Assembly (NCBI GenBank): GCA_030141605.1
Contig: JAQGDQ010000001.1
Coordinates: 434,001-498,000 of the forward strand
Direction: 5' to 3'
Length of the DNA: 64,000 bases
Source of the DNA: Tubiluchus corallicola
Lineage: Eukaryota > Animalia > Priapulida
This document shows, piece after piece, positions 10,281 through 57,050 of this stretch. Position 1 is the first letter of the stretch, and each line of letters starts with the position of its first letter. Both the position numbers and the translations under genes were made by a program. The notes below the pieces were generated by a model. That model did not search any database, was not told where the DNA came from, and saw nothing but the letters and a program-made list of their open reading frames with translations.

Positions 10281-11088
10281 GGCTAGAAGGAGGAGCAATT
10301 GGGTCAGAAATTTAATCAATTTTAATATTACATACTGGGCAGCAGAACCGATTGTTAATGACGATGACGGCAAGCTAACGATGTTACCGGTGTTAACGGT
10401 AACAACGGTAAACGTGAAGCAGTGCCTACGTTGTGTATTGTAGTGTACTATACGGTTTCATTATAATATTTCTAACAACAAAAGGCAAACATACAAGAAA
10501 AACTAAATACTCAAAAATCAACTTACCAAGACAATTTTAGCGATAATTTTCATTTCTCTACGTGCTCACATGCACTTGCGCTTATATTGTTCATAATAGG
10601 CCGTGCAATGACGTAAATCAATTCGGTCATATAGATTACGGCTGAGACGACTTCATTAACTGCACAGTAATATTGTTTTCTCGCGCTTATTCGTAAGTAC
10701 AAGCCAATTACAAATATTAAAGGCAAAGCTTTCTTATTAATGCACCTTATGAGGTCACGAATGGGCCTATTATGCTGATCAAAATATTCAGGTATAATGT
10801 TGTTATTACAATGTGAATGTGGCATTTACGAATGCGTCACTTATTAAGTAAATTTTTAAGCAATTGTTAGCGTTAGTCTAGTCCAATCTGTATACTAAGT
10901 CTTCTCCCAAGACAAACAGTATTTTCATTTTATAAGCAAGAGCAGGTCCGGCCTACGTGGTTCATTAATTTTAGCAAATCATTGCCAAAATTATGAAAAA
11001 TAACATTAAAAGCTAAAGATATGTTTTAAATTATATGAAAGAGTATAGGTTTATGATCGTATCTCAAATAAAAAATGCGTTTTCGTAC

Positions 11089-11459
11089 CTTTGTGGTTGA
11101 GGTTGAACATGATAAGCATACTGTGACTCATCTTTTCTACGATGCGTACCATCATCTGACGAATGATTTCTAAACCCTGCACTGGAACGAGGATTGGACG
11201 ACCATGAGGTAGTGGCAGCTCGACTTTGTTCATTCTCTCGGTGCTGCTGTTGCGCCAGCACCAATTCCTCGTCTAGTAAAGTATTCCATCTTTGGCGTAA
11301 GTGCGCTCTGCGACGGGCTAATGTCTTAGCCAAAGAGCTGCTTGTGTGATGGACGGGAGTGTGGGGCAAGGAACTGGCAACATCAGCGGGAAAGGAGTGA
11401 GTCCTTGACACTGCTGCTGTTCTTGAAGTGGTTGGCTGCGGTTCCAATTTAAAACTCAT
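11089..11459 (-). CDS. Probable alternative first coding exon of the same unidentified gene
   Basis: ATG with an in-frame upstream stop. About 123 codons of Ser/Arg-rich sequence (RTHSFP, RRRAHLRQRWNTLLDEE), ending at donor AG|gtacg (phase 2). Confidence 0.55.
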
Positions 11460-12358
11460 CTTGTCACTTCCAATGATTCAAAAAGCTCCTCCGGGATAAA
11501 GGCAATGTTCTTTCTTTTCAGTACTACTAGTTCAATACGTAGCGATTAGAAGTTGCCATCACTAATTCCACTCGTAATTGAAATAAAAATACAGATGATG
11601 AACTGGAACTAGAAGGAAGAATACTCTACTACAAGCCTTCTGCTAGCGCGTCTCTTTGTAAATATATCGGCAAGTAGCTGAATAGAACTTGACAACTGCG
11701 TGCATATGCATTGTACTCAAGTCATTAGAGGCAACGCGTGGCGAAGGCAGCAATAATATTTATTAATAACAAACGAATGCACGTCGCTATAGCACACAAG
11801 ATTTGCGTATATCTGCATATTGCTATACTAAAAGATTTCTACGAAGGAATAAGCGAACCTGCGCGGTAATGCAGCGTATCAACGGTCAACCACATAATGC
11901 GCGCGCGGTGAAACGATTTATGTCTGTTTTACACGATTATAGCTGTTATGACTGTTATATTCCCTTGTCTCCTGCAAAGACGGCAAAGATTTTGCGCAAC
12001 GGCTATTCTCAGCGTAGTACCAAACGGATTTCAATCAAAAAATTTGCTTAGAATATGTCACTCTATAGCCAGCCCTTTCGGCATTTCCTGAATCGATATA
12101 GCGGGAGATAATACTACACAGCTCATTACTATTCGCAGAAGGGTGAGTGGCAACGTCAACGTAATTTTATTAGCGGCTTCAGCTAGGGGTTAGCTGGTTA
12201 ATCCATCTTTACCCACATAATAAAGCAACTGAAAGCTCCATATAATATAATATATTACACAACTACTTTCACAGGCGATTAATTCTGCTTTTTTGTTTTT
12301 ACCTTTGCGTATTTTTGCTTTTTTGGATCGAGAAGCGCTATGGCATATGCAAAAAAAT

Positions 12359-12564
12359 ATGGATGTAGTATAATAAAGTTGATGGTCTTTCTGGGAGATT
12401 ATTAAGGTTAAAATTATTAGTCAGACACATAATTCTTATATTAGGATAATTAGCTGAGCAAGGGTTAATGGATGTAGTATAATAAAATTGATGGTCTTTC
12501 TGGGAGATTATTAAGGTTAAAATTATTAGTCAGACGCATAATTCTTATATTAGGATAATTAGCT
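12359..12564. repeat. About 97-bp tandem duplication (109-nt period)
   Basis: atggatgtagtataataaa...ggataattagct occurs twice, with 2 mismatches and a short spacer. Confidence 0.9.
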
Positions 12565-13109
12565 TTTTATTTTATAATTAGCTTTTTAATTAAAAGCTAG
12601 TAAACGCACACCCAGAAAAGACACTATTGCAAGAAGGACGCAGAAAATCGATGGTTAAAAGAAACAGAGAAAATCACTCCTTTGTCTGTTCACTTACTCG
12701 CTCACAAACTTACTCACTTGTTTTTAGTATTTCTAATAAAATAATAATGACAAATGAAAACGTTTGTTAGTGTCATGCATAATGTAAAATAAAATTTATT
12801 TTTAAGAAACAAAAACTTGTTGGATAGCGCATGGATAACAAAACACAAACTCAATAACCACCGGTAAATTGTTTAAAAACCTATACCTGTAATAATAAGT
12901 CGCCCCTCATCATCGTTTGCAGGACAGTAGCACACACGCACGCAATCGCATACTCTATTTACTCTAGCAGAAGTGTAACTATAGCTAAAAATGTTTTTTC
13001 TAAAGGGTTAGCAGGAAATAATTTAAATTTTATAGGTGAACGCAAAAGTACAATGAGGCAAAGTTTTAAGTTTCTACTGTCTGTCCTTTGACAGTTAAAA
13101 GGCTACATT

Positions 13110-13351
13110 GAAAACAAACAAACAAAGAAACATACATACATACATACACACACACGCGCACACGCACCCACACACACACACACAGACACACACACACACA
13201 CACACAAAAAAAACATACATACATACATACATACATACACACAAACATACATACATACATACATACATACATACATACATACATACATACATACATACAT
13301 ACATACATACATACATACATACATACATACATACACACCATCATACATACA

Positions 13352-13382
<31 letters not shown>

Positions 13383-13482
13383 CATACATACATACATACA
13401 TACATACATACATACATACATACATACATACATACATACATACATACATACACAGAAAGAGAGAGAGAGAGAAAGAGAGAGA
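13110..13482. repeat. Compound microsatellite (CA)n/(TACA)n/(GA)n
   Basis: Directly visible in the sequence. Confidence 0.97.
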
Positions 13483-14885
13483 AAATCTTGATAAGATCTG
13501 CATCATTGGACAATAGACAAAATACCCAGCTATAGTAGCCAGCAAATTTAACAATATATTTGATAATAGAAAATTGCTATTAAATTTGACTAATAGTTGA
13601 TCAAAAATCATAGTGAATATCAGGGTAGCTAGGAATTTTTCCGCATACTGAACTAAATGTAAGAATGCTAGCTCTCAAGCTAGAACAAGCAAAAAAGCAA
13701 AACTTATCCTTTAATCAGTTTCCTATGCGTCTTTGTCAATCTCTCTCAATTCAAAACTAGTCCTACCTTAGCGCGCTGGTAGCTTGCAAAAGGCCTAAAT
13801 GGATTAAAAGCGTGTAAGGTGTCGAGAAAATAATAAACGCACTAGATGAATGTTATTGCAGGACAGATCGCATAATAATCGCGTCTTCTAATCTTTTAAT
13901 GAATTATTATATTATTTAATCTCCCTAAATCTTATCGCGTTTTGTCCATACTAAGCAAGAATCAGGTAAGTCCTTGAAGAAATGAGGCATGATACCCACC
14001 TCCATTTGGGCTGTTGCGCTATGAAAGCGACAACAACAGCAATTAAAACAAGTGTTTTACTCGAAATTAAATGCTGAAAAAGTGTGTTATCGTTTTTATT
14101 TTTTGCATTTTATTGCTTCCGTAGCGGTCTACAGGGAAATAGTCAATCATTTTTGACAACACCGATCTACGATAATCTTTGTATGAAATTAGTGAAGAAA
14201 ATTGTTATTTACCGTAAACCACAATTGATTACAAGCGCACGAGATGGCGAAAACTAGCACATGCGCATATACAGAAAATCTGTAGCACAGTCACTGTGTG
14301 AAGCCACACAAGTTAATACTACATGACATGATGCATCTTGCGAGGTGCATGCTTTCGCCACCTTGTGCCCATAAATGTTAACATCAGCACACAGCCGTAT
14401 ATATTGTCACTTTGCAATAAATGAGAGTTCTTTTCTTCCGCTATTCTGTTATTGGACATTAGCATAATAATCAATCAGTATATCTGATTAACAGCAGAAA
14501 CAGCAAAAAGAATTTGTTAATTCAGTGTCTGTGATACCAAAAATTCTTGACATTACTTTTTTTCATTTTGCGTCTGCTCTTAAAAAGTGACAATATTTTT
14601 ATAACAATGTAGCTTTTAATAATCCAGTTTTCAAAAGAATCTTGGACGATCATACCAGACTGATATTGGTTTTCATCTTTGGTGTATGAATTTATAACGC
14701 ATGATTCACAATGCATGAATTTAAAATGATTTTTGAGATAACTATTGCAACGTTTCTCTTTCACGTACACGATAGAAATATGCTTGAAATCAATAGATGA
14801 GTTTCTTTAGCTAATTATGTAAAGCAGCACTGTTACTCATAATTCGAGTTTTCACATAAATAGTTGTAAATCAGCTTGTACTTAC

Positions 14886-15142
14886 TCTTCTAATAACTTC
14901 ATCCGGCGAAACTGAGTTGTTTTCATCTGCGTTTGAACTAAGGCGCATGTTTTAGCATCAGATATATCCACACATCTTCTCTGGCGCTTGTATGCAGTGC
15001 TTTTCTTCGCTTGATTTAAATCGTCTTCCTCAGCTTCTCGTATGGCTTCTATTGCTTGTAATGTTGCCCAATGCAAAGCAGGAGAGGACCCACGACGCCT
15101 CGTGGAAGAACGACGGACAGACGCACCTCGAAAGGCACTCAT
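14886..15142 (-). CDS. Probable first coding exon of an unidentified multi-exon gene
   Basis: Acceptor ttattttgtAG 2 nt before the ATG. Encodes MSAFRGASVRRSSTRRRGSSPALHWATLQAIEAIREAEEDD... and ends at donor GA|gtaagt (phase 2). Coding-like GC content. Confidence 0.55.
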
Positions 15143-16829
15143 GTCTACAAAATAAGTAGAAAAACATTTTTACGGAACCGTATGAAAAACAATACATACA
15201 ATACATGTCGAATTATAAATTGCATGTCGCACATGTTTTGCACGCGAAATAAACATATTTCAAGATCGACTACAAGTAGCTAGGCCCCATAAGTAAAAGT
15301 TACTTTGAACTACCAAAAGGTTGTCATTATAGTGGTTCTTTAACAATTAGCATTACAAAGGAAAGTGCAATGGTGTTTAATCTTCAAGGGCACGTAATAC
15401 TGAACTGAAGTTACGTGTCACTTTACGCCCACAACCATTTTTAAAGCTTTTGCTTTTAATTTTCATTAGGAGGTTAAATTCTCACATGCCTTTTCATCGA
15501 CTCGTATCGTATTGCGCATGCGTCGAGGATGAAACCACTTAGAAACTGGGATTATTGAACATTCAAATTACAGAAACTTTGTGCTAATTTTTTTGTATTG
15601 GTTAATTAAGCTAAAAGGGTTATTATTACACAATTTATATGTTGTTCTTAGTATAAATCAGAAGACAATAAACTATGACATGTAAAACTTCAAAAAATTC
15701 GAGCTATAAACGTATTCCGCCCAAACAACGTGCTCATATAAAGTGCTTAATGAAATAATGATCATAAATTTTATTGAACATTAAATAAATGCAGTAACTG
15801 TAAAGAAATGGAAAATGTTATTGTTTATAACACCATGGTAGGACGAAAAAAAATTATTGTGTTAAGTGTTGCGTTAAGTGACTAATGTCAGACTATTTCT
15901 TTATGACCGAAAGAAAGAAACATAGTATGTTAGAATTAGACTCATCGAACTTATTTGTGAGTGTAACCAGAAGAAATAAAACAAGTAAGCAAATTACTAT
16001 AGCAAAAATTTGAATAAACGTCTAGTTCATAATGTTTTATGCGAAATGGGTGAATGAATGAGATATAGAACTGGTTGTATAATTGAATAAATGAATAAAA
16101 GCTCAACCAAATCAAATTCAAGTGAGGATTTTTTTATTTGTGTTTGACATATGCAAAAATGACAAATAGTCCACCGAACGACATAATTATGTAACTTGAA
16201 TAATCAAGCAAGAAGTTTCGATTTACTGTATCCTCATTGATAATTTTTTTGCGAAATGGAGCTACTGCGAAGAATAAGAAAGAAAAATTCAATATTTCCG
16301 CGTATTTTTTAAGTTAATCTCGTTAAAATACGAAAACTCCTGGCGTCGAGTAGGTAGTATAGTTCGGTACCCATTTAATGGTGGATGTTATCGGCCTATT
16401 TAGGCAGGTTTCGTAGACGCTGCCACCTTTCTTCAACCGGCGTCTTCTTAAACTCATACATCTGATTTTCAAAATTTTGCGCTGAATATTACTGTTACAA
16501 AAATTTACTTTTTTAGGGGGTAACAAACAATTATAATGAAATATCTCTATTGACACAGTGAGGACCCTTTTGGCTCCAAACCCAGATTTCTGGGCAATTG
16601 CGATTATCAAACTAATAAAACTGATGCGTGTTAACAAGTCTGGAGCTCGTTCTGTTTCTTATTATTAAATCTGCCATACGAACTTTGTTTTTGTGTGATT
16701 TTTTGATACTTATTTGTTGTTTTATTTTGTTTTTACAGTAATAACGCTAAACGCCATTTTTTGACATTATTGTTATTGTACTAGTAATGTGTCTCACTCA
16801 GTGTAACAAGATAGTCTTTGTCAGTAAAA

Positions 16830-29966: not shown

Positions 29967-31195
29967 AGATATAAAAGTGCACATGGCCTATTCAGAAAAA
30001 ATATCAGAAAAGTATTTCAAGGTCATTCAAGCTCAAGGTTATTCAAAATGGCCACAAACAAATCTTTAAAGTCAAAATTATCATAACTAGGAAGCATTTT
30101 AGACTATATAAATATATTATTATAGATATAAAAGTGCATACAGTTCATCAGAAAAATAGTGTTTCGAGATCATTCAAAATGGGCACCGATACAGCATTAG
30201 TCGAAATTGATCAGTTAGAAAGCATTCAATATGGCATAAAGTTGAGTTATTTAGACTTTAAAGTGCAGCCATTTTGAATGGCCTAGACTTAGAATAACAT
30301 TGAAACACTATTTAGCTGATAGATCATTTGTACTTTTATAACAGCTGATGATACATTCATGCAATCTTAAATGCTATTTAGTTGACATATTGTGACTACA
30401 AAGCCATGTTAGTGGCCATTTTGATTTTAAAACCCTATAACTTTTTTCGCCAAAGCAGATTTCACAGAATTTTTAAATATCTTATTCGGACTTATTCCGG
30501 ATGGCTTTCTTAGATGTCTGTACAAAACTTCAGCTTTACATTACTTTTGTTTGTTTTTAGGCTAATGTGACTGTACTATATCCATTATACCATTAAGGTA
30601 TGCCTTAGATAATTTTCAGTTATGGACTAAAACCATGGACAGTTTTCCTTTAATAAGCCTCAATTCCAAATAAAACAACAAAATACTAACAACCATCCGG
30701 ACTCCAAAGCTTATTCACCTCAGAAATGATTATACAAATGAAGGTAAATGACACGTTGAGACATGATACTATAAATCATTGCACCATTAATATAAATTAC
30801 TATCCTGCTGTTGTGCCAACTCATTTATTTGCATCTGCTTCTACAGAGTGAGATACAGGTATAATGAAAAATCTAATATTCAAATGAAATTCACCAAACA
30901 GAATAGAACAAAGGAACTTAAATAAATTCATTTTCTCTGCATTATGATGTTCATAGAAGTTGTTATTTAAAACACTTTTTTACCAAAGAAGCGATATCTG
31001 ACCAATATAAAGTGATTATAAGAAATGACAAGACAGTGTAAACAACATTTTTTAAATCTAAATAGATTTGCAACACATCAAAACTACATATAATATGAAA
31101 TACATTGTGTATATCATCTTGTGCTAGGTATATCACTACATTTCAGGAAACTGTTGACAAGCAAATTGTTGTTTAGTCAAAGGTATTTTGATGCA

Positions 31196-31843
31196 TCAAT
31201 TTTGTTGTAGTGAGAAAATCAAATTGCGCAGCCAAGCACGTTTACCAGTTATAAATGACTGTGTCAGCTCTTGTTTGTCTTTTTCAAGTAAATTACAATC
31301 TTGGTTAGTCACATATTTTTCGCACAGCTTCTGAGCTATGCAAATAACATACATGCCACAATCATAGCCATTCTTTTGCTGTGGACAGTCCTCATCCACA
31401 AACTCACCAAGCTCACCCCACATGAATCTAACAAACTGTTTCATGAGTCGAAGTGCAGCAGGGCGGTTGCTCCCAGATATCGGATCGTAGTGGAAAGTTT
31501 TTTTGCCCTTTACATCTATTACAAGCAGACTCCAGTGAGTTCCACCTGTTGTCACCAATGAACTGTTGTCATTCACAGCACAAAAGAGAAACCGTTTTGA
31601 TGTTAGATGAAGTGGCGCTAAAGACACTTTCAGCTCCTCCACACTGTCAATCATTTTAACAAATTGTGTCACTTCTGGTCCTATGAAGAGTATATCATCT
31701 CTGCTGGTAAACATGACATTTTGGAAATATTCGAATGCAAAACCGATGATCGTGTCATTCAACCAGCCATTTTTCTCCACTGTTTGTAAATCAGATGCTC
31801 GAACAAGGCTATCAAAGAAGCTCAGTATAAGAGGATCTTCCAT
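31196..31843 (-). CDS. SENP8: NEDD8-specific protease (SENP8/NEDP1/DEN1), peptidase C48, 215 aa, single coding exon
   Basis: MEDPLILSFFDSLVRASDL..WLNDTIIGFAFEYF, AVNDN..GGTHWSLLV (catalytic His) and CPQQKNGYDCGMYVI (catalytic Cys) match the SENP8 family. The true ATG is at 31843; the ORF track start at 31900 is a TTG. AATAAA (-) at 30824-30829. Confidence 0.96.
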   Translation of the reverse strand: MEDPLILSFFDSLVRASDLQTVEKNGWLNDTIIGFAFEYFQNVMFTSRDDILFIGPEVTQFVKMIDSVEELKVSLAPLHLTSKRFLFCAVNDNSSLVTTGGTHWSLLVIDVKGKKTFHYDPISGSNRPAALRLMKQFVRFMWGELGEFVDEDCPQQKNGYDCGMYVICIAQKLCEKYVTNQDCNLLEKDKQELTQSFITGKRAWLRNLIFSLQQN

Positions 31844-31915
31844 CACATACAAACTTATACAACTTGTGATGCAAAAAACTATAAAAAACGTTTGAACCAA
31901 AATCGGGAGCAGTTT

Positions 31916-32146
31916 CTACTTCTCAGCTGGTTGGCTACTATAAGTTTTCATGGCATGAAATGCTTTGGCAACATCTGGATTTTCGTTTGCAAACTTTTCT
32001 GGTGTGTTTATATTTAGCCATTCAGAAGTTTTCATTTGCGATTTTAGTTTTTCGAGTAATTGTTCTAGTGTTTCATTCTCTGGTAAAGAATCCTTGTTGC
32101 TGTTGTCACTGTCAAGGTTTTCTTTTCCATGAGCAGACATTTTCAT
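31916..32146 (-). CDS. Unknown 76-aa small protein (MKMSAHGKENLDSD...LEQLLEKLKSQMKTSEWLNINTPEKFANENPDVAKAFHAMK...) directly upstream of SENP8
   Basis: Open frame with protein-like composition (amphipathic helix), preceded by a strong acceptor ttttttgttatttttAG (exon starts 32157). Its stop is 72 nt before the SENP8 ATG. No family recognised. Confidence 0.55.
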   Translation of the reverse strand: MKMSAHGKENLDSDNSNKDSLPENETLEQLLEKLKSQMKTSEWLNINTPEKFANENPDVAKAFHAMKTYSSQPAEK

Positions 32147-32991
32147 ATAATCACAGCCTAAAAATAACAAAAAAGTTGTTAATGTTTTAAATAGTTGTGG
32201 CGACTTGACATAAGCACAAAATCACTGCAAGAGGTTAATTTTACAGTTTAACAGTGCTTCAAAAATGCGTGTAATTGATCCAGATCAGTACTACTTTCTA
32301 CTGGGCAAAACAACTTACACAACCACCAAAAACTTAAAATTCATGACAGTGATTGCCGTTTTATGATGCTCTATGTGTGGATGGAAGTGAAGTAGTTCTT
32401 ATGCAATCATTTTGATGTAATGTAGTATGACAAAAAACAAGCCCGAAAACAAGTTTTTTTGTACAGAGTAAAAGCACAAAAAGTATATGAAAAGTACATA
32501 CATGCTAAAGTGACTTGATAAAAATAATTTAATTTCTTTAAGTTAGGCACGAGCCAAGAGGACTAGGAGGGTTCTACAGCACATCCATCAGCATGTGCTA
32601 GGCAATCGAAATTAAGAACGCCACCGACAATCAGATTTGGTACTGGCTCTGATAAGTTTCATTTGTCACACTAATTGTTGAAGCTTACTTCAGTTTTCAC
32701 AGAGGGCAGATCAGAATATGACTAAAACACTTCTGTTGGTTCATCTTAAAGGCATAGCCTTAATAATGAACAAAGTCTGAACTAGCTTTACCTATCCATC
32801 TTGGGTAAGCCATGCTGTTTATTGATGAACATGCTTCGCAGTGTGTCAAATTTCGTAAAAGTTTTGACTCACTAACTTAAATTAAATTCAGGTATAGATT
32901 TTAGGTACAAAGACTACAAAGTACAAAGAAACTTACAAGACCTTAAAGTGCTGGGAAGAGCAACAAAATTTCATTTTAACTAAATATTTTC

Positions 32992-33070
32992 AACTACAGA
33001 GTTTTAACAAATCAAAGTTGGGTACACAAAACTACAGAGTTTTAACAAATCAAAGTTGGGTACACAAAAC
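32992..33070. repeat. 38-bp tandem duplication
   Basis: aactacagagttttaacaaatcaaagttgggtacacaa x2. Confidence 0.9.
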
Positions 33071-33145
33071 AAGTGTAGTAATCAAGGTCAACTGTACTCA
33101 AAACATTTGAGTACAAACATCCCAAACTTCATTTAGGCAGTTTAA

Positions 33146-34666
33146 AGGTCCTATGACACTATTTTTATGCTAGTTTATTTGAAGCCTAAGCAGAATTAAA
33201 ACAGTTTTGATGCATGCTTTTATGTGATATGGTAACTTAAATTAAGCGCCGTTGGTATTGTCACAAATATTATCGCCCGCCATGACACTCAGCACTGTGA
33301 AATCACGTCAGGAAGTGGCAAATACCAGTCACAGTACAGTAGATAGCCAGTGGCCTCAGCAAGCAGAGCACTGTGAACACTGACCAGAGTGGTTATTGCT
33401 GAGTAATGATTTATCTATTAATAAAAACGTTTCTTACTATAGTATTTATCTATTTATAGCAAACAAACTTATAAGAAACAGTTTTTATTTTACAAACATG
33501 CAAGGAACAGCAAATTTATAGCAGCAAACACAGTATGCAAAGAACTATGATGTTATTGTATCATTACTTAAACTGTGTGTATGCTGTATGAACAATAGGT
33601 GTGCCCAGTACTCCCGCGAATTAGATCAAACTGCAAGTAAGCTGCTAGCCACTATTTTGGGTTAGATGCACAGTAAGTAAAGTAATAATTAATCTTTGTA
33701 ACTAATAAAATTAAGTACACAGATTAATCAGTGTACTCCCGTGAATTAGTTCAAGCTGCAAGTAAGCTGCTAGCCTCTATTTTGAGTTTGATGCACAGTA
33801 AGTACGGTAATAATTAATCTTTGTAACTAAATTCCATACTTAATCAAGGTTAGCAGTAAGACATTCGAACCCTACCAGTTTAACAGAAACTCCCCGATTT
33901 TAATAACAACTTTCCTTTCTTCACATTTTGAAATATTTCTCCTGATTTTTTACACGTTAGTTCAACATAAAAATGGCACAAAATGTGACCACAGTAATGA
34001 TAGGACATCCTTTTGCCACAAAAAGAAACGCCCATCTATCCTACTGGGCATGGTGAAAAATGAAGCTTATGCAGTTACACGTAGAATAAAGGTAAGATTT
34101 TACAATTTTATATGCTGATAAAAACGATCGCTGTTTGTCAGGAGCATTGTCTGAACAGGACTTCGGGCAAAAGATACCTTGGCAATGAGACATTTATAAA
34201 ACAGAAGTGATCAGAAAATGAACAAGAAAGCAGCACAGCGCGAAATACCAGTGATGCAATGCTAAAACTTTTACACATTGTACTTCGTTATTAATATTTT
34301 TTCATCTATAAAATATAGTGCATTCAAGTAAGTGTAGACAAACGTATTATTTGAGCTTAACACTAAAATATCAAAATACGAGTACCCAATCTCTTCATTA
34401 CCGGCATATCGCTAGATTTTGCCCACATGTAAATACCGCGAGAATCACATATGCGCATTGTTGTTCCTAACGTGATGTCACTTCCGCTTTTTTCCCCCCA
34501 GATTTTTCGTTTCCCTAAAAATGTCAGTGCAGCACTAAATTTGAAGTGTTTCCACCATTTCAAACTGAAATGCGTATGTTTATAAAAAAATAAAGCCACT
34601 TTTTTGTATCAGGCTAGTCAATAGAGAATTTTGACAGGAAGTGCCTACCAGGGTGTCAGTGGACCT
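33146..34666. mobile_element. Kolobok-like non-autonomous DNA transposon
   Basis: TTAA|AGGTCCTATGACAC ... GTGTCAGTGGACCT|TTAA (12/14 TIR match, TTAA TSD). The internal part 33600-34090 is homologous, inverted, to 820-1200. Confidence 0.7.
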
Positions 34667-34673
34667 TTAAACA

Positions 34674-35306
34674 ACTATTTTCCCGTGTATAAGAGACCCC
34701 TTCAATTTTTAGGCAAAAATTCTGGAAAAAAGTTTTTTGGTAATGAATAACTTTATTCATCATAGAAATCATTAAATTCCTCATCACTCTCATCAAAAAT
34801 ATCAACTGGAGTCAGACCTTCAGCAATTCCAGCCAGTTCATCATCAGAGGAGTCACTCTGCTCAAAAATGGCATTGTCCTCTGTGATGCTCGTATTGCTT
34901 ACAACCACTTCATAGTCGAACGCGACACGCCTTGCTTAGGCTGACTCATCTCGTTGACCTCTGCCGACGTATCAATGACGTCGACGGGCATGCAGAGAGC
35001 TTATGCAGATGCGTTGATTGACTGCAGAACAATCGATTTCTCTCCAATACCAAAGAGACATTTAAAAAATAATAACTTACCCGGTACATTAATTTTATCA
35101 TTAGAATTTAGCCATGGAGAAGATTTATTGAAAGGAAACTATAATTATTCGAAATAAAACAGTTGTAGAGCACTTATTTCTTTAAAATCATTAGTGTCAC
35201 AATTTATGCATCTTATTGAAAAGACTTACTCCCATGTATTTGTAACCCTATTTTTAAAGTGAAAATTCTGAGCAAAAAAGGGTCTCTTATACGCGGGAAA
35301 ATACGG
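34674..35306 (-). mobile_element. Second pogo/Tigger derivative of the same family, inverted, 26 nt past the CDK2AP1 stop
   Basis: Same TIRs, and about 400 bp near-identical to 40849-41250 in reverse complement. Retains the acidic transposase tail EDNAIFEQSDSSDDE...DEEFNDFYDE*. Confidence 0.88.
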
Positions 35307-35332
35307 TAGTTAACATATCTGTGGCATACGCG

Positions 35333-35545
35333 TTACATCCGCGCACTCCTTTCTGTCTCCATTAAGCATTCACGAACAAGTATACGGGCATGAACAATGC
35401 CCCGTTTCAATCTTTCAGCTGAAGTTTTGCTTCCAGAATAGGTAGGACGAATATCTTTGCCCATATCTTCGATGACAGCCAGGAGTTGTCCATATTTTGT
35501 CTGTGGCTGCTGCTGTTGTACTATCCTTTGTGTGTGTGATGATGT
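35333..35545 (-). CDS. CDK2AP1: CDK2-associated protein (DOC-1, NuRD subunit), coding exon 2
   Basis: Acceptor gttctttAG, phase 0. Translates to [70 protein letters not shown], the CDK2AP family C-terminal helical domain. Confidence 0.95.
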
Positions 35546-38780: not shown

Positions 38781-39813
38781 ATGGTTTATCAAATAATTTC
38801 GTTTGAGGATAAACAACTCATTTTTCAAAGTTATAAAAGAGGTGATGATTACTTACATCTTGCACAGCAACTTAGTATAAAAAAATCAACTGCGTGGCTA
38901 TTATTAAGACAGCACTGGAGGGTAGAATTGTCAAACCACGTGGCGGCTTCAGAAGAAAGCTCGTCAATGAAGAAATGGGAGACTATGCAATTAATCTTAT
39001 AGAGACTCATCCAGAATTTATACGCTAGAGCAAGTCATTGCGTCTATGCATCGAGACATGCCTGAGAAACCACGCACATCCCGCTCAAGGTTAGCCAATG
39101 TGCTAAAAGGGCGTCTGATTGTAAAGAAAAAGTTAGAAGACGCTGTAGCAGATAGAAATAGTGAAAGAGTGAAGCAAGAACACTTTCTATATGCACACTG
39201 GTTGATGGAGAGAGGTTTGCAATGTGAAATTATATTCATTGACGAAGCGGGCATAAACCTGTGGATGAAGAGGACGAGAGGAAGGGCAATCCAGGGTCAG
39301 AGAGCCGTGCGAGTTGTGCCTAGTCATCGCGGAAGCAATCTTACCATGACTTTTGCAGTAAGCAATACAAATGGCCTGATATATTATTCCTTAACAGAAG
39401 GTGGAATGAACAGAAAATGTTTTAATAATGCATTTCTTCAAGACGTAACAGATAATCTGCATGACGATGGTCGGGAAAAATTTTTCATTTTTGACAATGC
39501 ACCTGCTCATAGGGGAGCAGCCTTGCTGCCAGATTTGAGCCTACCAATTCAAATTAAGAGGCTTCCTCCTTATTCTCCCTTTTTAAATATTGTCAAGAAT
39601 GTATTCAATCAGTGGAAGGCTGAGATGAAGTGTCTTCTTGCAGATACTAGAGAAAATCTTCTAGTGGAGAATCACGGCCAGAGAATGGCAACATTAGCTC
39701 AGTTAGCAGAACAGTCTGTTAATATCATAACACCCGCAGATGCAGCCAATTATTTTCAGCCTATGCAGCAGTATATACCATGCTGCTTAACCTACGATGA
39801 TATTCTAATGTAA
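38781..39813 (+). pseudogene. Tc1-like DDE transposase, frameshifted, with the catalytic Glu replaced by Lys
   Basis: HTH-like N-terminus from the ATG at 38781, frameshift near 38910, then IIFIDEAG, FIFDNAPAH and LPPYSPFLNIVK (normally NPIE). Confidence 0.85.
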
Positions 39814-40400: not shown

Positions 40401-40848
40401 TCCTGTGTCTACATTTGACGTGTAAAACCTATAGAATGGCGGGTGACAACAATGCCTGGAACAGCCGCGAAATTTCTCAAACTCAAAGACAATGGATGTC
40501 CAAACGTGCAGCTTAGGGGGGTCGAAAAAGAACTTTGAAATACATCCCTCACGTTTTATCTAGTGGACATCTCTCCCAACATAACCTTCAACATTTTGTA
40601 GACCGCTTCGTCCTCTTTCTGGGAGTGTGCTTATTTTTTCTTAACTTGCCCAAACAGTTTGAACAAATTGATTCGAAAAATGAAACCCCAATGGGAAATC
40701 TGTGGGTCTGGAAATTTTGTTTGATATATAGATCGCCTAAAATGGTGCCATCGTTGGAGCTGTAGCCTCGTCGGTTTTATATATATATATATAAGTACAT
40801 TTTGGAACTTTGCTTAATCTATATACTAACTTCGGTGGTATATATATA

Positions 40849-41549
40849 CCGTATTTTCCCGTGTATAAGAGACCCTTTTTTGCTCAGAATTTTCACTTTA
40901 AAAATAGGGGGTCTCTTATACATGGGAGTAAGTCTTTTCAATAAGATGCATAAATTGTGACACTAATGATTTTAAAGAAATAAGTGCTCTACAACTGTTT
41001 TATTTCGAATAATTATAGTTTCCTTTCAATAAATCTTCTCCATGGCTAAATTCTAATGATAAAATTAATGTACCGGGTAAGTTATTATTTTTTTAAATGT
41101 CTCTTTGGTATTGGAGAGAAATCGATTGTTCTGCAGCCAATCAACGCATCTGCATAAGCTCTCTGCATGCCCGTCGACGTCATTGATACGTCGACAGAGG
41201 TCAACGAGATGAGTCAGCCTAAGCAAGGCGTGTCGCGTTCGACTATGAAGCGATATTCTTATCCTAAACCTGCGACTTGGCCAAACCTGGAGAAGTCACT
41301 GAAACACTGGGTCCAATCTCAGAGGATGAGTGGATTGTCAGTGTCTACAAAGATGATCATGGAGCAAGGGAGGAGGATTGCTAGAGAGATGGTGGAGAGC
41401 AATGAGAACGGAGAAGAGACTTGAGGAATTTAATGATTTCTATGATGAATAAAGTTATTCATTACCAAAAAACTTTTTTCCAGAATTTTTGCCTAAAAAT
41501 TGAAGGGGTCTCTTATACACAAGGGTCTCTTATACATGGGAAAATACGG
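40849..41549 (+). mobile_element. pogo/Tigger internal-deletion derivative retaining a CENP-B-type HTH fragment
   Basis: TIRs CCGTATTTTCCCGTGTATAAGAGACCC and TA flanks. Contains WPNLEKSLKHWVQSQRMSGLSVSTKMIMEQGRRIA (HTH_Tnp_Tc5-like). Confidence 0.88.
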
Positions 41550-41775
41550 TATACCACCGAAGTTAGTATATAGATTAAGCAAAGTTCCAAAATGTACTTA
41601 GTGACAAAGGTTAAAAAACACCTTTCGAAAGCACAATGAGAAAAGTCTAATGAAAGCCTTACTTGCGATGTAACAACCAATGTTGTCTTTAAATACTGTA
41701 TTACCTATTCAAATCTTAGATCATACTCATAAAAATATATGATCAAGAGAAGCAATTTTCATGTGCCTATCTTAC

Positions 41776-41886
41776 CTGTTGTGGTGTAGATGAACGCGTG
41801 TCTGGATCAATGCTGCGTGGTGTACCTGGATTACTAGCTTGAAATGAATCTACAGAATCATCACCATTTTTTATGTCCATTGTCAT
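41776..41886 (-). CDS. CDK2AP1: CDK2AP1 coding exon 1 (MTMDIKNGDDSVDSFQASNPGTPRSIDPDTRSSTPQQ)
   Basis: ATG at 41886 and donor CAG|gtaag in phase 0 join exon 2 in frame to give 107 aa, a family-typical length with a disordered N-terminus. Upstream acceptor ttttttAG at 41917-41918. Confidence 0.8.
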
Positions 41887-43467
41887 GAAATGTGTTGACA
41901 GTCTTTGTTTCCAAAACTAAAAAATTTGAATAAGTTTACTGATGGCAAAATCAGCATTTATTGGTAATTTGGAATGTAAATATTAATCAAAAATAATAAA
42001 ATGGGCCTTCATATAAAGAGATTAGCGGAAACATTCACTGATGACGTAAGAATAATGACCTACGAGCCTAGAAACGAGTAATAACCTAGAAAAAACTAGG
42101 AGGTGCGAAAGTGTAATAGCGCCAATTAGCACAGTATCACGTAGTACTAGTAATTCATAAACTTTGAATCCACTATATCGAATCGCCGATCACTCGCTGG
42201 AAATCGATAGGGACGGAGTGCTACCACTTGTCTAATAGAAAAATACACTTCACTCTCAAAGTTCGATTTCGCAAGTGACAATTTTCATTTCTGCAGTCTC
42301 ATAAATTCGCCATGATCACAAATTCACAATAGATACATCACAGGTGTGGTGCCCTCTGTTGCCAGATTTAATAACCAGTATTAACAATATGCGACGGTGT
42401 CTTGAAATAAACGACTAAATTAAAATTAATGTAATTCGCTGGTGAGAGACTTGTGGTTTTTTTGCACTGATCGTTGCTCTATCGTATCATAAAAAACGAG
42501 TTTTTGAATGCCACCTTGCTCGCCAATTCTGCGAAGAAGATCAAACTTATCCACGATAACAACATATTTACAACTCAGAGAAAAAAATATAAGCCTGCAC
42601 AATCACAACTGGTAAAATCTGCATAAGTCAAGAAAAGCCAGTACATTAAGTCACACTTTTGAAAAAAAGAACCTCAAAAATTAATCACCAGATTTACAAT
42701 CCACAATTGTCAGAGCCTTATTTTATACCAAATATGTTTCAGCATTAGCCAAGTGTTGTATATTGCTGTAGGCCTAATAGCATTAGTACAAGAAAAAATT
42801 GTAATCGCTTATCGACTATCTCTAGGTTTTGTACGACACCTGCAGTCCTGTGCACACTGAAGGTGAAGGCCGCGGAGCATAATAAAGAAATAGCTATAGC
42901 CCATGCGCTTTTTGTCCAAAATTTAGTAGACTCATTTGAACACTGTGCACATAAAGAGTAGAAAGTGTTTCAATTTATACATGTATTTTAATTGCAGCAA
43001 CTTGCCTGCACTTGTAGAGCGGCTAAGCTAACTGCTTCTATCAACACAGTTGTAGACAATGCCTGGCAGGGTACGTAAAATTAAATTTTGGCGCGGGGCA
43101 CAAATAAGATTAATGTCGTACCTATTTTTTATTTTTGTTCATTAAATTTTAAATGACCCATTATAATATTCTAGCTCTCACAATATTTTTTAAGAAATAT
43201 TCGCTTCTTGATTATAATAGTAAAAACCATGTCATTTGGTTTTGCACTTTCTGGTTAATCGTTATAATTCGGTAAAATGCGTAGCTTTTAAAATGAACGA
43301 AGTAGAATACACCGCAAGTTTACTTTAGGATTTTATTAAAATTTGTCAGCATTTTATTTCAAAAATATCTAGTGCATCACAAAAACTATAAGTGTGCGTC
43401 ACAAATCACACCAAAATTTAACGTCAGTATACTAGTGCAAGCAAGTTTAACCGGTGTTATCACAACA

Positions 43468-48380: not shown

Positions 48381-50114
48381 TTACTTTTCTTGAGGAGCCA
48401 TACTTGGACTCTGTGTCTGATGCTTAACAAGTTTTTTTACTCTGTCAATTTCTACCTTTATGCTCAATTTGTCCTTTTTTTCTTCATCAATTTCTTCCAT
48501 AACTTCCTCAAGCTGCCGCTTAAAGTCTAACTGGATTTTGTCAAGTGCAGATTTTAGTATTTTAATTTCCTGTTTTAGTTCCTGATTTTCACTTTGAAGC
48601 ATCTGAAATTCCTTTCGTGATATTGATGACTCCTGCAAATTTTTCAGCTGCTTTTGCATAAGTTCCAGTGACAAGGCACTGCTTGGTTGCTCAGCTGGTA
48701 ATGTGGACCCACCAACTAATGAATGTGGTCTTGTTGCTGCCGAAGCAGGTGGCGGCACTTTGCTTGGAAATGCAGACTTTACAAATGTTTTTTCCTTTTC
48801 CAAGCCATCTTTTTCATCGCCATTAGTAACAATGGACTCACTGTCCTTTAAAAAGATAGTAGACGGAGGACGGCCTGGACCTTTAATTCGCTTAAGATGT
48901 GTAAGCTTCTCCAAAGGTGCAACTTGATCAAAGCTACTATCATCTGCTGTGTGATCTTGCAGCTTTTCAGAAATTTTGTTAGGCGTGTTTGATGCTGAGC
49001 TTGCTTGATCGGAATGTTTGTCCTTATGATTGGATAAATTTGGCTTAGAAGGTACTTGTGGCTTTTCTTGAGGTGAACCAGTATCATGAGCTGCAAGCTT
49101 TCTGTCCTTTCCACCAACAAGTGACTCAGGTCTAGGTGGTGGTGGCTGCTTACCAACTACGGGAGTTTTTACCTTTTGCTCTTCTGGAGGAAGCAATTCG
49201 ACAAAATTATCAGGAAAAACGCCTACTTTTCCATTTAATTCACCTTTCCACCAGCCAGCATCTTCTATTGTTCTACTGGTAATTGTAACAATATCTCCTT
49301 CTGCTAATGTCAGTTCATCTTCATTTTCAGCTTCGTAAGGAAATATAACTTTGCACTTCTCCACAGTTTGCTTGGAATGTTGAATATCACCAGGTGTAGG
49401 TGGCGGAGGTTTCTTTGGCGGTACTTTATGGTTAGCTTTGTTCTCGGCTGAATCAGAATGAGGAAATTTCTTTTCCAAAGCTCCCCAACTGACAGGTTTC
49501 AACTTGGGGCCACCATCCTTAAAAATATTTCCAAACCCTGGCCCCTTGAGTCCTCCATGAATTTTCTTTCCCCCATGAATTTGACTTTCTGGAAGTGAAT
49601 CTGTCTTTTCCACACTATCCTTTGTATGATCCTTCTGTTCAGAATCACTTAATTTTTCTTCTTTAACAATTTCTTTAACAAAATTAGAAGGAAATACACC
49701 AACTTTACCTTTTATTACACCTTTGAACCAACCCTCTTCTTCTTCGCCCAAAATCTCCAGAACATCTCCTACTTTAAGCATTAATTCATCTTTATTTCGA
49801 GGCTCATAATCAAAGAGTACTTTTGCTTGCCGATTCTTTTCTTTCAGTAAAGATTCCCTCTTCTTAGGTGCTTCTCTTGGTCCCTTTTTGCCAGGCGCTT
49901 GTTTTGGCCTTGCATCACTCATAATGTTAGTAGACTTTGATTGTATCTTAACGAAATTATCTGGAAATAATCCTGTTTTCCCATTCAGTTCTCCTTCCAT
50001 CCAACCATCTTCTTTCTGTCGACAGTTCTTTATGATTTCGCCCACGGCAATACTCAATTCGTCATCATTTTGGGCTTTGTACTCAAATTCAACAACAGCT
50101 TCTACAGTATCCAT
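48381..50114 (-). CDS. SH3KBP1: CIN85/CD2AP family adaptor (3 SH3 domains, proline-rich region, CPI-like motif, C-terminal coiled coil), 577 aa, uninterrupted CDS
   Basis: Three SH3 repeats (DELxL..GD..GWW.G.L.GK.G.FP.NFV), the GFGNIF motif, KKPPPP tracts, EKLTH..R..GPGRPPS and a terminal coiled coil. Acceptor ttttgtattAG at 50153-50154. Confidence 0.95.
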   Translation of the reverse strand: MDTVEAVVEFEYKAQNDDELSIAVGEIIKNCRQKEDGWMEGELNGKTGLFPDNFVKIQSKSTNIMSDARPKQAPGKKGPREAPKKRESLLKEKNRQAKVLFDYEPRNKDELMLKVGDVLEILGEEEEGWFKGVIKGKVGVFPSNFVKEIVKEEKLSDSEQKDHTKDSVEKTDSLPESQIHGGKKIHGGLKGPGFGNIFKDGGPKLKPVSWGALEKKFPHSDSAENKANHKVPPKKPPPPTPGDIQHSKQTVEKCKVIFPYEAENEDELTLAEGDIVTITSRTIEDAGWWKGELNGKVGVFPDNFVELLPPEEQKVKTPVVGKQPPPPRPESLVGGKDRKLAAHDTGSPQEKPQVPSKPNLSNHKDKHSDQASSASNTPNKISEKLQDHTADDSSFDQVAPLEKLTHLKRIKGPGRPPSTIFLKDSESIVTNGDEKDGLEKEKTFVKSAFPSKVPPPASAATRPHSLVGGSTLPAEQPSSALSLELMQKQLKNLQESSISRKEFQMLQSENQELKQEIKILKSALDKIQLDFKRQLEEVMEEIDEEKKDKLSIKVEIDRVKKLVKHQTQSPSMAPQEK

Positions 50115-56516: not shown

Positions 56517-57050
56517 GATGATGAGAGGAATTTTCTTCCAATAAAAGCAGCAAAAACAGAGGATCACACATTTTCGTACTATGATCCAGTTGTGAACAAG
56601 TTTACAAACATTATTATGCTGAAGGGCAAAAAAAGTCTAGCAAGAGACATTATGATGAAAACATTTGAACAGATAAAACGGATACAAATTGAAAAGTACA
56701 ATAAAGCTTCAGAAGAAGAAAAAGAAAACATTTTGTGCAATCCTGTGACAATTTTCCACCAGGCCATTGAAAATTGCAAGCCGTTGTTGTTACTAGAAAA
56801 TGTGAAGAGAGGAGCGATTGTGTATCAAGTGCCTGTGCCAATAACTGACCGTAAAAGTCAGTTTGTGGCAATGAAATGGATGCGCGATACTTGCAGGGAC
56901 AAGTACAGAACAGTGCACATGGAATTTAGTCTAGCCGAAGAACTGATAAATGCAGCAAACCATACTGGCCGTGTTATTAAAAAGAAACAAGACTTGCATA
57001 AGCTAGCTGAAGCAAATAGAGCTTATGCTCATTTTCGCTATGGTAAATAG
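56517..57050 (+). CDS. MRPS7: Mitochondrial ribosomal protein S7 (uS7m), coding exon 2
   Basis: Acceptor ttttAG|GAT. PIKAA..DPVVNKFTNIIMLKGKKSLAR..NPVTIFHQAIENCKP..YQVPVPI..HKLAEANRAYAHFR is the uS7 signature. AATAAA at 57559-57564. Confidence 0.96.
   Translation, partial: DDERNFLPIKAAKTEDHTFSYYDPVVNKFTNIIMLKGKKSLARDIMMKTFEQIKRIQIEKYNKASEEEKENILCNPVTIFHQAIENCKPLLLLENVKRGAIVYQVPVPITDRKSQFVAMKWMRDTCRDKYRTVHMEFSLAEELINAANHTGRVIKKKQDLHKLAEANRAYAHFRYGK

Follow-up and report, generated by a model that had tools for sequence, protein, structure and literature searches.

The locus examined here raises the question of whether a short open reading frame (ORF) of 76 codons, lying immediately upstream of a deneddylase gene and on the same strand, is a gene in its own right, and how two such closely packed frames could both be expressed. 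It lies within a 64,000-nt stretch of a Tubiluchus corallicola contig, called the window below, in which all coordinates are given. On balance, we consider it probable that the ORF encodes a conserved microprotein, and that it forms the middle cistron of a three-gene mRNA, which would be read by re-initiation; its product, a relative of the C-terminal tail found on ACC-synthase-like enzymes (ACCS), is predicted to be helical and to serve in docking.

Gene content and coding constraint

The locus is read from the minus strand. A T-rich tract precedes a splice acceptor (AG at 32159-32158; exon start 32157), and a leader of 11 nt separates the acceptor from an ATG at 32146 (acceptor and leader together, 32147-32159); the acceptor is in phase 1 relative to the ORF, and the frame is open from it to the ATG. 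The ORF (31916-32146) comprises 76 codons and ends in TAG at 31918-31916, with a second ATG at 32140 that would yield 74 residues and a conserved core at about residues 25-66. It is followed by an intercistronic spacer of 72 nt (31844-31915; 44% U, unstructured, z 0.83), in which a second AG lies behind a T-rich tract at 31880-31879. The only AUG inside the spacer belongs, in the window sequence, to an AUG-UGA start-stop (31843-31848) whose UGA overlaps the AUG of the next frame. Poly(A) hexamers (AATAAA or ATTAAA) are absent from 32157 to 31844, and exon 3 contains none before the stop of that next frame; the first AATAAA past this stop, at 30824-30829, is a candidate poly(A) signal for the whole unit. 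Each element of the layout reported by the initial annotation (the acceptor, the 76-codon ORF, the spacer free of AATAAA, the same-strand SENP8 frame and the second AG) is thus present.

The downstream frame (31196-31843, 215 aa, intronless) encodes SENP8/DEN1. It matches Pfam Peptidase_C48 (E = 1.3e-14), with the His-Asp-Cys triad and the accompanying glutamine of this fold in place (His103, Asp120, Gln156, Cys162). Among the matches listed (170 in total), those with names, including the best, are all called SENP8, and identity to the nearest annotated species is about 51%.

Upstream lies CDK2AP1, in two exons. Exon 1 (41776-41892) carries ATGs at 41886 and 41880 and corresponds to one piece of a spliced contig described below; its 5' limit is provisional, and a further 5' exon at 42283-42297 was not accepted, since its match of 15 out of 16 letters is equalled elsewhere in the window. 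Exon 2 (35330-35545) matches Pfam CDK2AP (E = 3.7e-23) and ends with the stop TAA at 35335-35333 and a splice donor 3 nt past it. Removing the GT-AG intron of 6,230 nt between them leaves an open frame of 105 residues, and the sequence of both exons is contained in a homologue of 104 residues (P0157). A second intron (32158-35329; 3,172 nt), containing a repeat element at about 34676-35308, extends from the exon 2 donor to the acceptor ahead of the 76-codon ORF.

Whether that ORF is a gene was assessed by comparison with X2, a sequencing run that we guess to be of RNA. X2 is 87-95% identical to the window and therefore comes from a diverged relative. The comparison lists 33 of 40 differences, the seven near contig ends having been left out, and 25 of those listed fall in codons 11-76, where pS is 0.35 and pN 0.07 (Fisher P = 2.5e-5); in core codons 25-66, dN/dS falls to 0.05. 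Stops, frameshifts or a dN/dS near 1 had been named as signs against the ORF, and instead the frame is intact in X2, with a dN/dS of 0.16 over codons 11-76. Differences in length are confined to two 1-nt deletions in the spacer, with no insertion or deletion in the ORF, and its stop TAG becomes TAA. Three Logan proteins match the microprotein at 77-86% identity, and these three database homologues all begin at the second ATG, with a Met-Ser start. By comparative sequence criteria, the 76-codon ORF is a real protein-coding gene under purifying selection. The locus hence holds three separate, non-overlapping ORFs with coding constraint, two with Pfam domains above cut-off and the third with the dN/dS given above, and this arrangement is kept across relatives that differ at about one-third of synonymous sites.

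Several other features were recorded in the window. A near-identical short element (97.5-100%) with inverted ends occurs once in each CDK2AP1 intron, at 34676-35308 and 40847-41551, the copies sitting about 20 nt and 225 nt beyond the CDK2AP1 donors, and a DDE_3 transposase frame lies on the plus strand within intron 1 (38995-39813). An intronless frame of 577 codons on the minus strand (48381-50114) contains three SH3 domains and a coiled-coil-like C-terminal end; we take it to be CIN85/CD2AP-like, and its lack of introns, being unusual, possibly marks a retrocopy. A single frame of 177 codons on the plus strand (56517-57050) has a Ribosomal_S7 domain, probably that of mitochondrial S7. At 10800-15200 on the minus strand, frames 11064-11477 and 14882-15169 look like coding exons and have no Pfam match.

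A probable three-gene RNA and its proposed translation

The initial annotation had proposed that the microprotein and SENP8 come from one transcription unit. Contigs from relatives support this and extend the unit to the upstream CDK2AP1, which that annotation had missed. A 766-nt X2 contig maps to the window in three pieces (41892-41776, 35545-35332 and 32149-31838). Ten letters lie at the joint between 35332 and 32149, as expected if a donor after 35330 is spliced to the acceptor before 32157; this agreement in number identifies the junction as that of the CDK2AP1 exon 2 donor with 32157. Use of this acceptor, also anticipated by the initial annotation, is accordingly supported in a relative, as a cis-splicing event. 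The contig then runs 78 letters beyond the ORF stop, through the spacer and 6 nt into SENP8, an overlap below the 31-letter bridging rule; X2 cover is absent at 31667-31837, a gap that counts neither for nor against continuity. No spliced leader was seen at 32157 in the one X2 contig over the site and in 30 of its 114 unplaced 5' letters.

Database contigs suggest the same linkage. The three best microprotein matches lie on contigs of 1,543, 1,828 and 1,858 nt, as do the three best of 170 SENP8 matches, and the best of 351 CDK2AP1 matches is a complete two-exon protein on a contig of 1,828 nt; that these are shared contigs is deduced from equal nucleotide sizes, and CDK2AP1 is tied to one of the three. 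The model transcript in the window, at about 1,795 nt, compares with 1,828 and 1,858 nt for the contigs of relatives. The first two AATAAA hexamers past the CDK2AP1 stop fall within the intron 2 repeat, which has a 97.5% copy at 40847-41250. In relatives, the ORFs thus appear to be joined on spliced RNA with no cleavage between them. Our best reading is a cis-spliced tricistronic mRNA in which CDK2AP1 is followed after 14 nt by the microprotein and after a further 72 nt by SENP8. The RNA evidence consists of assembled contigs of relatives, and a contig that spans genes does not prove a single molecule; even so, we think it likely that single molecules carry all three frames.

In the model RNA, the gap between the CDK2AP1 stop and the microprotein start is 14 or 20 nt, depending on the ATG used, and that between the microprotein stop and SENP8 is 72 nt; 10 AUGs precede the microprotein and 20 precede SENP8. 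The strength of a start codon depends on its context at -3 and +4, and the CDK2AP1 start at 41880, with A at -3 and G at +4, is strong. Out-of-frame AUGs are not depleted (5 observed against 3.5 and 4.3 expected in the first two frames). The strong first start, the many upstream AUGs and the lack of depletion disfavour leaky scanning, whereas the short gaps, the low structure and a spacer whose sole AUG is a start-stop on the SENP8 AUG fit termination-re-initiation. A UGGGA element and structure were sought in the spacer and none was found. Ribosomes would finish CDK2AP1 and re-initiate at the microprotein AUG after 14-20 nt, and a second re-initiation after the 72-nt spacer would yield SENP8. 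Re-initiation behind a frame of 105 codons is usually inefficient. We see slightly less than an even chance that the three-gene RNA is the main template for the two downstream proteins and that its later frames are reached in this way, and not by leaky scanning.

The best-surviving alternative is that the three-gene RNA is a read-through form, and that most of the microprotein and SENP8 comes from shorter RNAs entering at 32157 from another promoter, first exon or spliced leader; SENP8 would be the second cistron of such RNAs. The 20 AUGs ahead of SENP8 in the long RNA would favour it, as would the contig of 1,543 nt, which carries homologues of the ORF and SENP8 and is short enough to omit CDK2AP1. 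Drosophila offers a precedent: at 114 of 159 dicistronic loci, one gene or both can also be transcribed in monocistronic form (PMC4528330). Against it, the X2 contig crosses the acceptor unbroken at a depth of 128 and shows neither a further joint nor a loose end at that point, although contigs drop rare RNA forms. The CpG observed/expected ratio is 0.2-0.5 over 32001-33600, compared with 1.2-1.5 in two intervals upstream of exon 1, and so gives no sign of an internal promoter, in what is a weak test. We regard these shorter RNAs as a rather unlikely main source, and keep the three-gene mRNA as the preferred reading.

The microprotein family and other possible uses of its exon

The initial annotation had matched the microprotein to no recognised family, a view that did not survive a HMMER search over 1.84 billion representatives, which returned 23 relatives of 57-136 aa. 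Residues L30, W43, L44, T48, N56 and P57 are invariant across the family, and the microprotein carries the family motif, a stretch of about 40 residues in which a Leu, Trp-Leu, Asn-Thr and Glu-Asn-Pro are invariant. Two relatives (P0006 and P0026) contain two tandem copies of the domain. Among the 20 relatives looked up, five come from molluscs, measure 80-90 aa and bear the name ACC-synthase-like protein 1, two are uncharacterised or hypothetical and 13 are unnamed; some of the unnamed sequences have N-termini resembling introns or ACCS and seem to be fragments of exons, so the 23 are not a count of stand-alone genes. The microprotein itself (P0001) has no Pfam match, and the 22 other family members show only scattered sub-threshold matches.

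Metagenome loci explain the mollusc name. In three related loci (L003, L007 and L009), it forms the last ~45 residues of Aminotran_1_2 proteins of 497-508 aa, whose closest solved structures are plant ACC synthases (1IAX, 7DLW and 1M4N). The microprotein is 44% identical to this tail over 52 residues (450-501 of a 508-aa ACCS), and the tail lies outside both the Pfam Aminotran_1_2 model and the part that matches solved structures. Fourteen of 17 metagenome loci with the domain are ACCS genes or transcripts, many of them near-duplicates. These alignments make the microprotein a homologue of both the ACCS C-terminal tail and the stand-alone mollusc proteins; we regard the 80-90-aa mollusc entries as mislabelled as an enzyme, their name having come by annotation transfer, presumably from a fish ACCS in Swiss-Prot with such a tail. 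The microprotein is not itself an ACCS, having no Aminotran_1_2 catalytic domain.

A phase-1 acceptor precedes the domain exon in nine of 10 genomic loci by filter and in the tenth by eye, as it does in the window; these loci perhaps represent four independent lineages. The shared acceptor points to a terminal coding exon that either became joined to ACCS or was released from it. In the mechanism that we propose, the microprotein exon would be a former terminal coding exon of the ACCS type that was detached and captured behind CDK2AP1.

AlphaFold2 predicts four short helices over residues 27-70 of the microprotein (mean pLDDT 69.7, pTM 0.32; 42 residues at pLDDT 70-90). Solved-structure relatives were sought without success in the PDB by sequence (best E 0.45), with Foldseek (none) and with VIA-align (best Z 3.4). 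Two other leads were rejected: SYCE3, which scored 0.82 in the ESM Atlas (no Pfam Synaptonemal_3 match in P0001 or in the 22 family members), and bacterial ESM Atlas clusters at 0.77 or below, dropped as unrelated. We read the protein as a putative docking module, which, because the domain is fused to ACCS, would most likely act on ACCS or on the partner of its tail. Binding in trans to ACCS, or to whatever the ACCS tail binds, is a tentative proposal that we rate as somewhat unlikely.

Homology to the ACCS tail points to ACCS, and not SENP8, as the partner. The initial annotation had suggested that the microprotein could be a partner of the deneddylase, and for this we found no positive evidence: SENP8 or CDK2AP1 lies beside the domain in none of the 17 related loci, most of which are short, whereas 14 tie it to ACCS. 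Prediction of a complex between SENP8 and microprotein residues 20-72, run without alignments, gave no answer (score 0.00). CDK2AP1 and SENP8 might then be co-regulated passengers of the microprotein and not its partners. An ancient linkage to CDK2AP1 was also considered and dropped; in Liolophura sinensis, the CDK2AP match and the family member are on sequences of different size (one species; possible paralogues).

Other settings of the domain were noted. In L017 (2-781), a stand-alone family member of 87 aa starts 57 nt past the stop of a frame of at least 152 codons, which has a signal-peptide-like start and no Pfam match, and which we take to resemble MZB1/Canopy; the contig shows no visible intron and may be another polycistronic or read-through case, independent of the one in the window. 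In L015 (1836-2720), weak SH3 domain exons lie upstream of the domain exon, and the donor after 2393 is in phase 1, such that the predicted splice would place SH3 and the domain in a single reading frame. In L016 (138-993), a stand-alone member of 57 aa lies 11 nt past a phase-1 acceptor, and a CFAP143-like frame follows it on that strand after 443 nt. A fuller scenario, in which three unrelated, conserved proteins arise from one cis-spliced mRNA by serial re-initiation behind full-length frames, SENP8 has no other mRNA, the freed tail exon controls ACCS in trans and capture behind other genes has occurred repeatedly (L017), is in our view unlikely.

The same exon structure permits an alternative in which the ORF is the last coding exon of a longer protein, as in ACCS, with its acceptor joined in phase 1 to a different donor, such as the internal one after 41826 in CDK2AP1 exon 1 or one belonging to an exon beyond the window. 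The acceptor resembles that of ACCS last exons, being of phase 1 and having no stop ahead of the ATG, in X2 as in the window, and phase-1 GT sites are present in the CDK2AP1 frame. Yet the sole junction seen is out of frame and uses a donor past the CDK2AP1 stop, no ACCS catalytic exon lies within the 64-kb window, and all three homologues retain the Met-Ser start; the phase and the open 11 nt may be chance. A weak ACCS match at 13-195 of the window contains stops, is absent from the profile search and was discarded. We consider a longer protein improbable, and a free microprotein the better reading.

Two further possibilities concern the spacer. The initial annotation raised a choice of acceptor, with SENP8 having its own mRNA through 31878 and skipping the microprotein; the T-rich tract and AG at 31880-31879 would allow it, but the AG reads AT in X2, whose contig reads across the site, and we find this choice unsupported and very improbable. 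Least probable of all, and scarcely credible, is read-through of the stop codon to a microprotein-SENP8 fusion: 31915-31196 is one open frame, the spacer being stop-free and in frame with SENP8, and a homologue (P0028) has an open stretch ahead of the SENP8 Met, but 19% of shuffled spacers are stop-free, the X2 stop is TAA and the two spacer deletions break the X2 frame. The AT and the spacer of 70 nt in X2 indicate a lack of conservation both for an acceptor at 31878 and for a read-through fusion.

Comparison with known systems

How ribosomes gain access to second and third cistrons in animals is unsettled even in Drosophila, and the locus, with its gaps of 14 and 72 nt, strong first start and absence of AUG depletion, offers a natural test case. 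It also brings out an unnamed domain of ~40 residues that some animals carry as an ACCS tail and others as a free microprotein. Standard annotation would lose the middle ORF and split the locus. Mature polycistronic mRNAs are already known in animals; the trio and the middle microprotein family were not found described, and a search of the literature in open sources, subscription papers lying outside its scope, found nothing on CDK2AP1, the microprotein and SENP8 together or on the ACCS tail; three papers that name both CDK2AP1 and SENP8 deal, judging from their titles and the opening of their abstracts, with other topics.

Den1, CG8493 and CG18292 are, we assume, the fly names for the SENP8 and CDK2AP1 counterparts. 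According to PMC4528330, FlyBase R6.04 has 159 dicistronic pairs, along with 7 tricistronic sets and 2 tetracistronic ones; simple scanning does not account for most of them, and most of the dicistronic loci also yield monocistronic RNAs. Like the locus described here, these Drosophila mRNAs are processed and cis-spliced and carry several separate ORFs, often functionally unrelated; Den1, CG8493, CDK2AP1, CG18292 and SENP8 are absent from its list in the 11 of 12 files searched. The genes and the lineage differ from those of the Drosophila sets, and one cistron of the present locus would be an enzyme tail that has become detached. In animal ACCS, that domain is the C-terminal tail of a PLP enzyme, whereas here the microprotein stands free of any enzyme domain.

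In SNURF-SNRPN, a conserved microprotein shares one spliced mRNA with a housekeeping gene and comes first, whereas the present microprotein is second of three, behind a gene of 105 codons. The human bicistronic SNURF-SNRPN mRNA is named in PMC7896298, which also sets out the mechanisms of polycistronic translation. Green-algal loci (PMC7896298 and PMC11892635) resemble this one in their short ORFs, short gaps and mature polycistronic mRNA. Their first start is weak, upstream AUGs are scarce and translation works by leaky scanning (PMC11892635); here the first start is strong and upstream AUGs are not depleted, which sets the locus apart from that type. Spliced-leader operons, which occur in nematodes, tunicates, flatworms and chaetognaths, likewise have packed same-strand genes, served by a single promoter, and a strong acceptor close to the downstream ATG. 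At this locus, however, the acceptor is joined in cis, in the one contig that covers it, to an exon of the upstream gene across 3.2 kb, so that, unlike those of spliced-leader operons, the cistrons would stay on one RNA.
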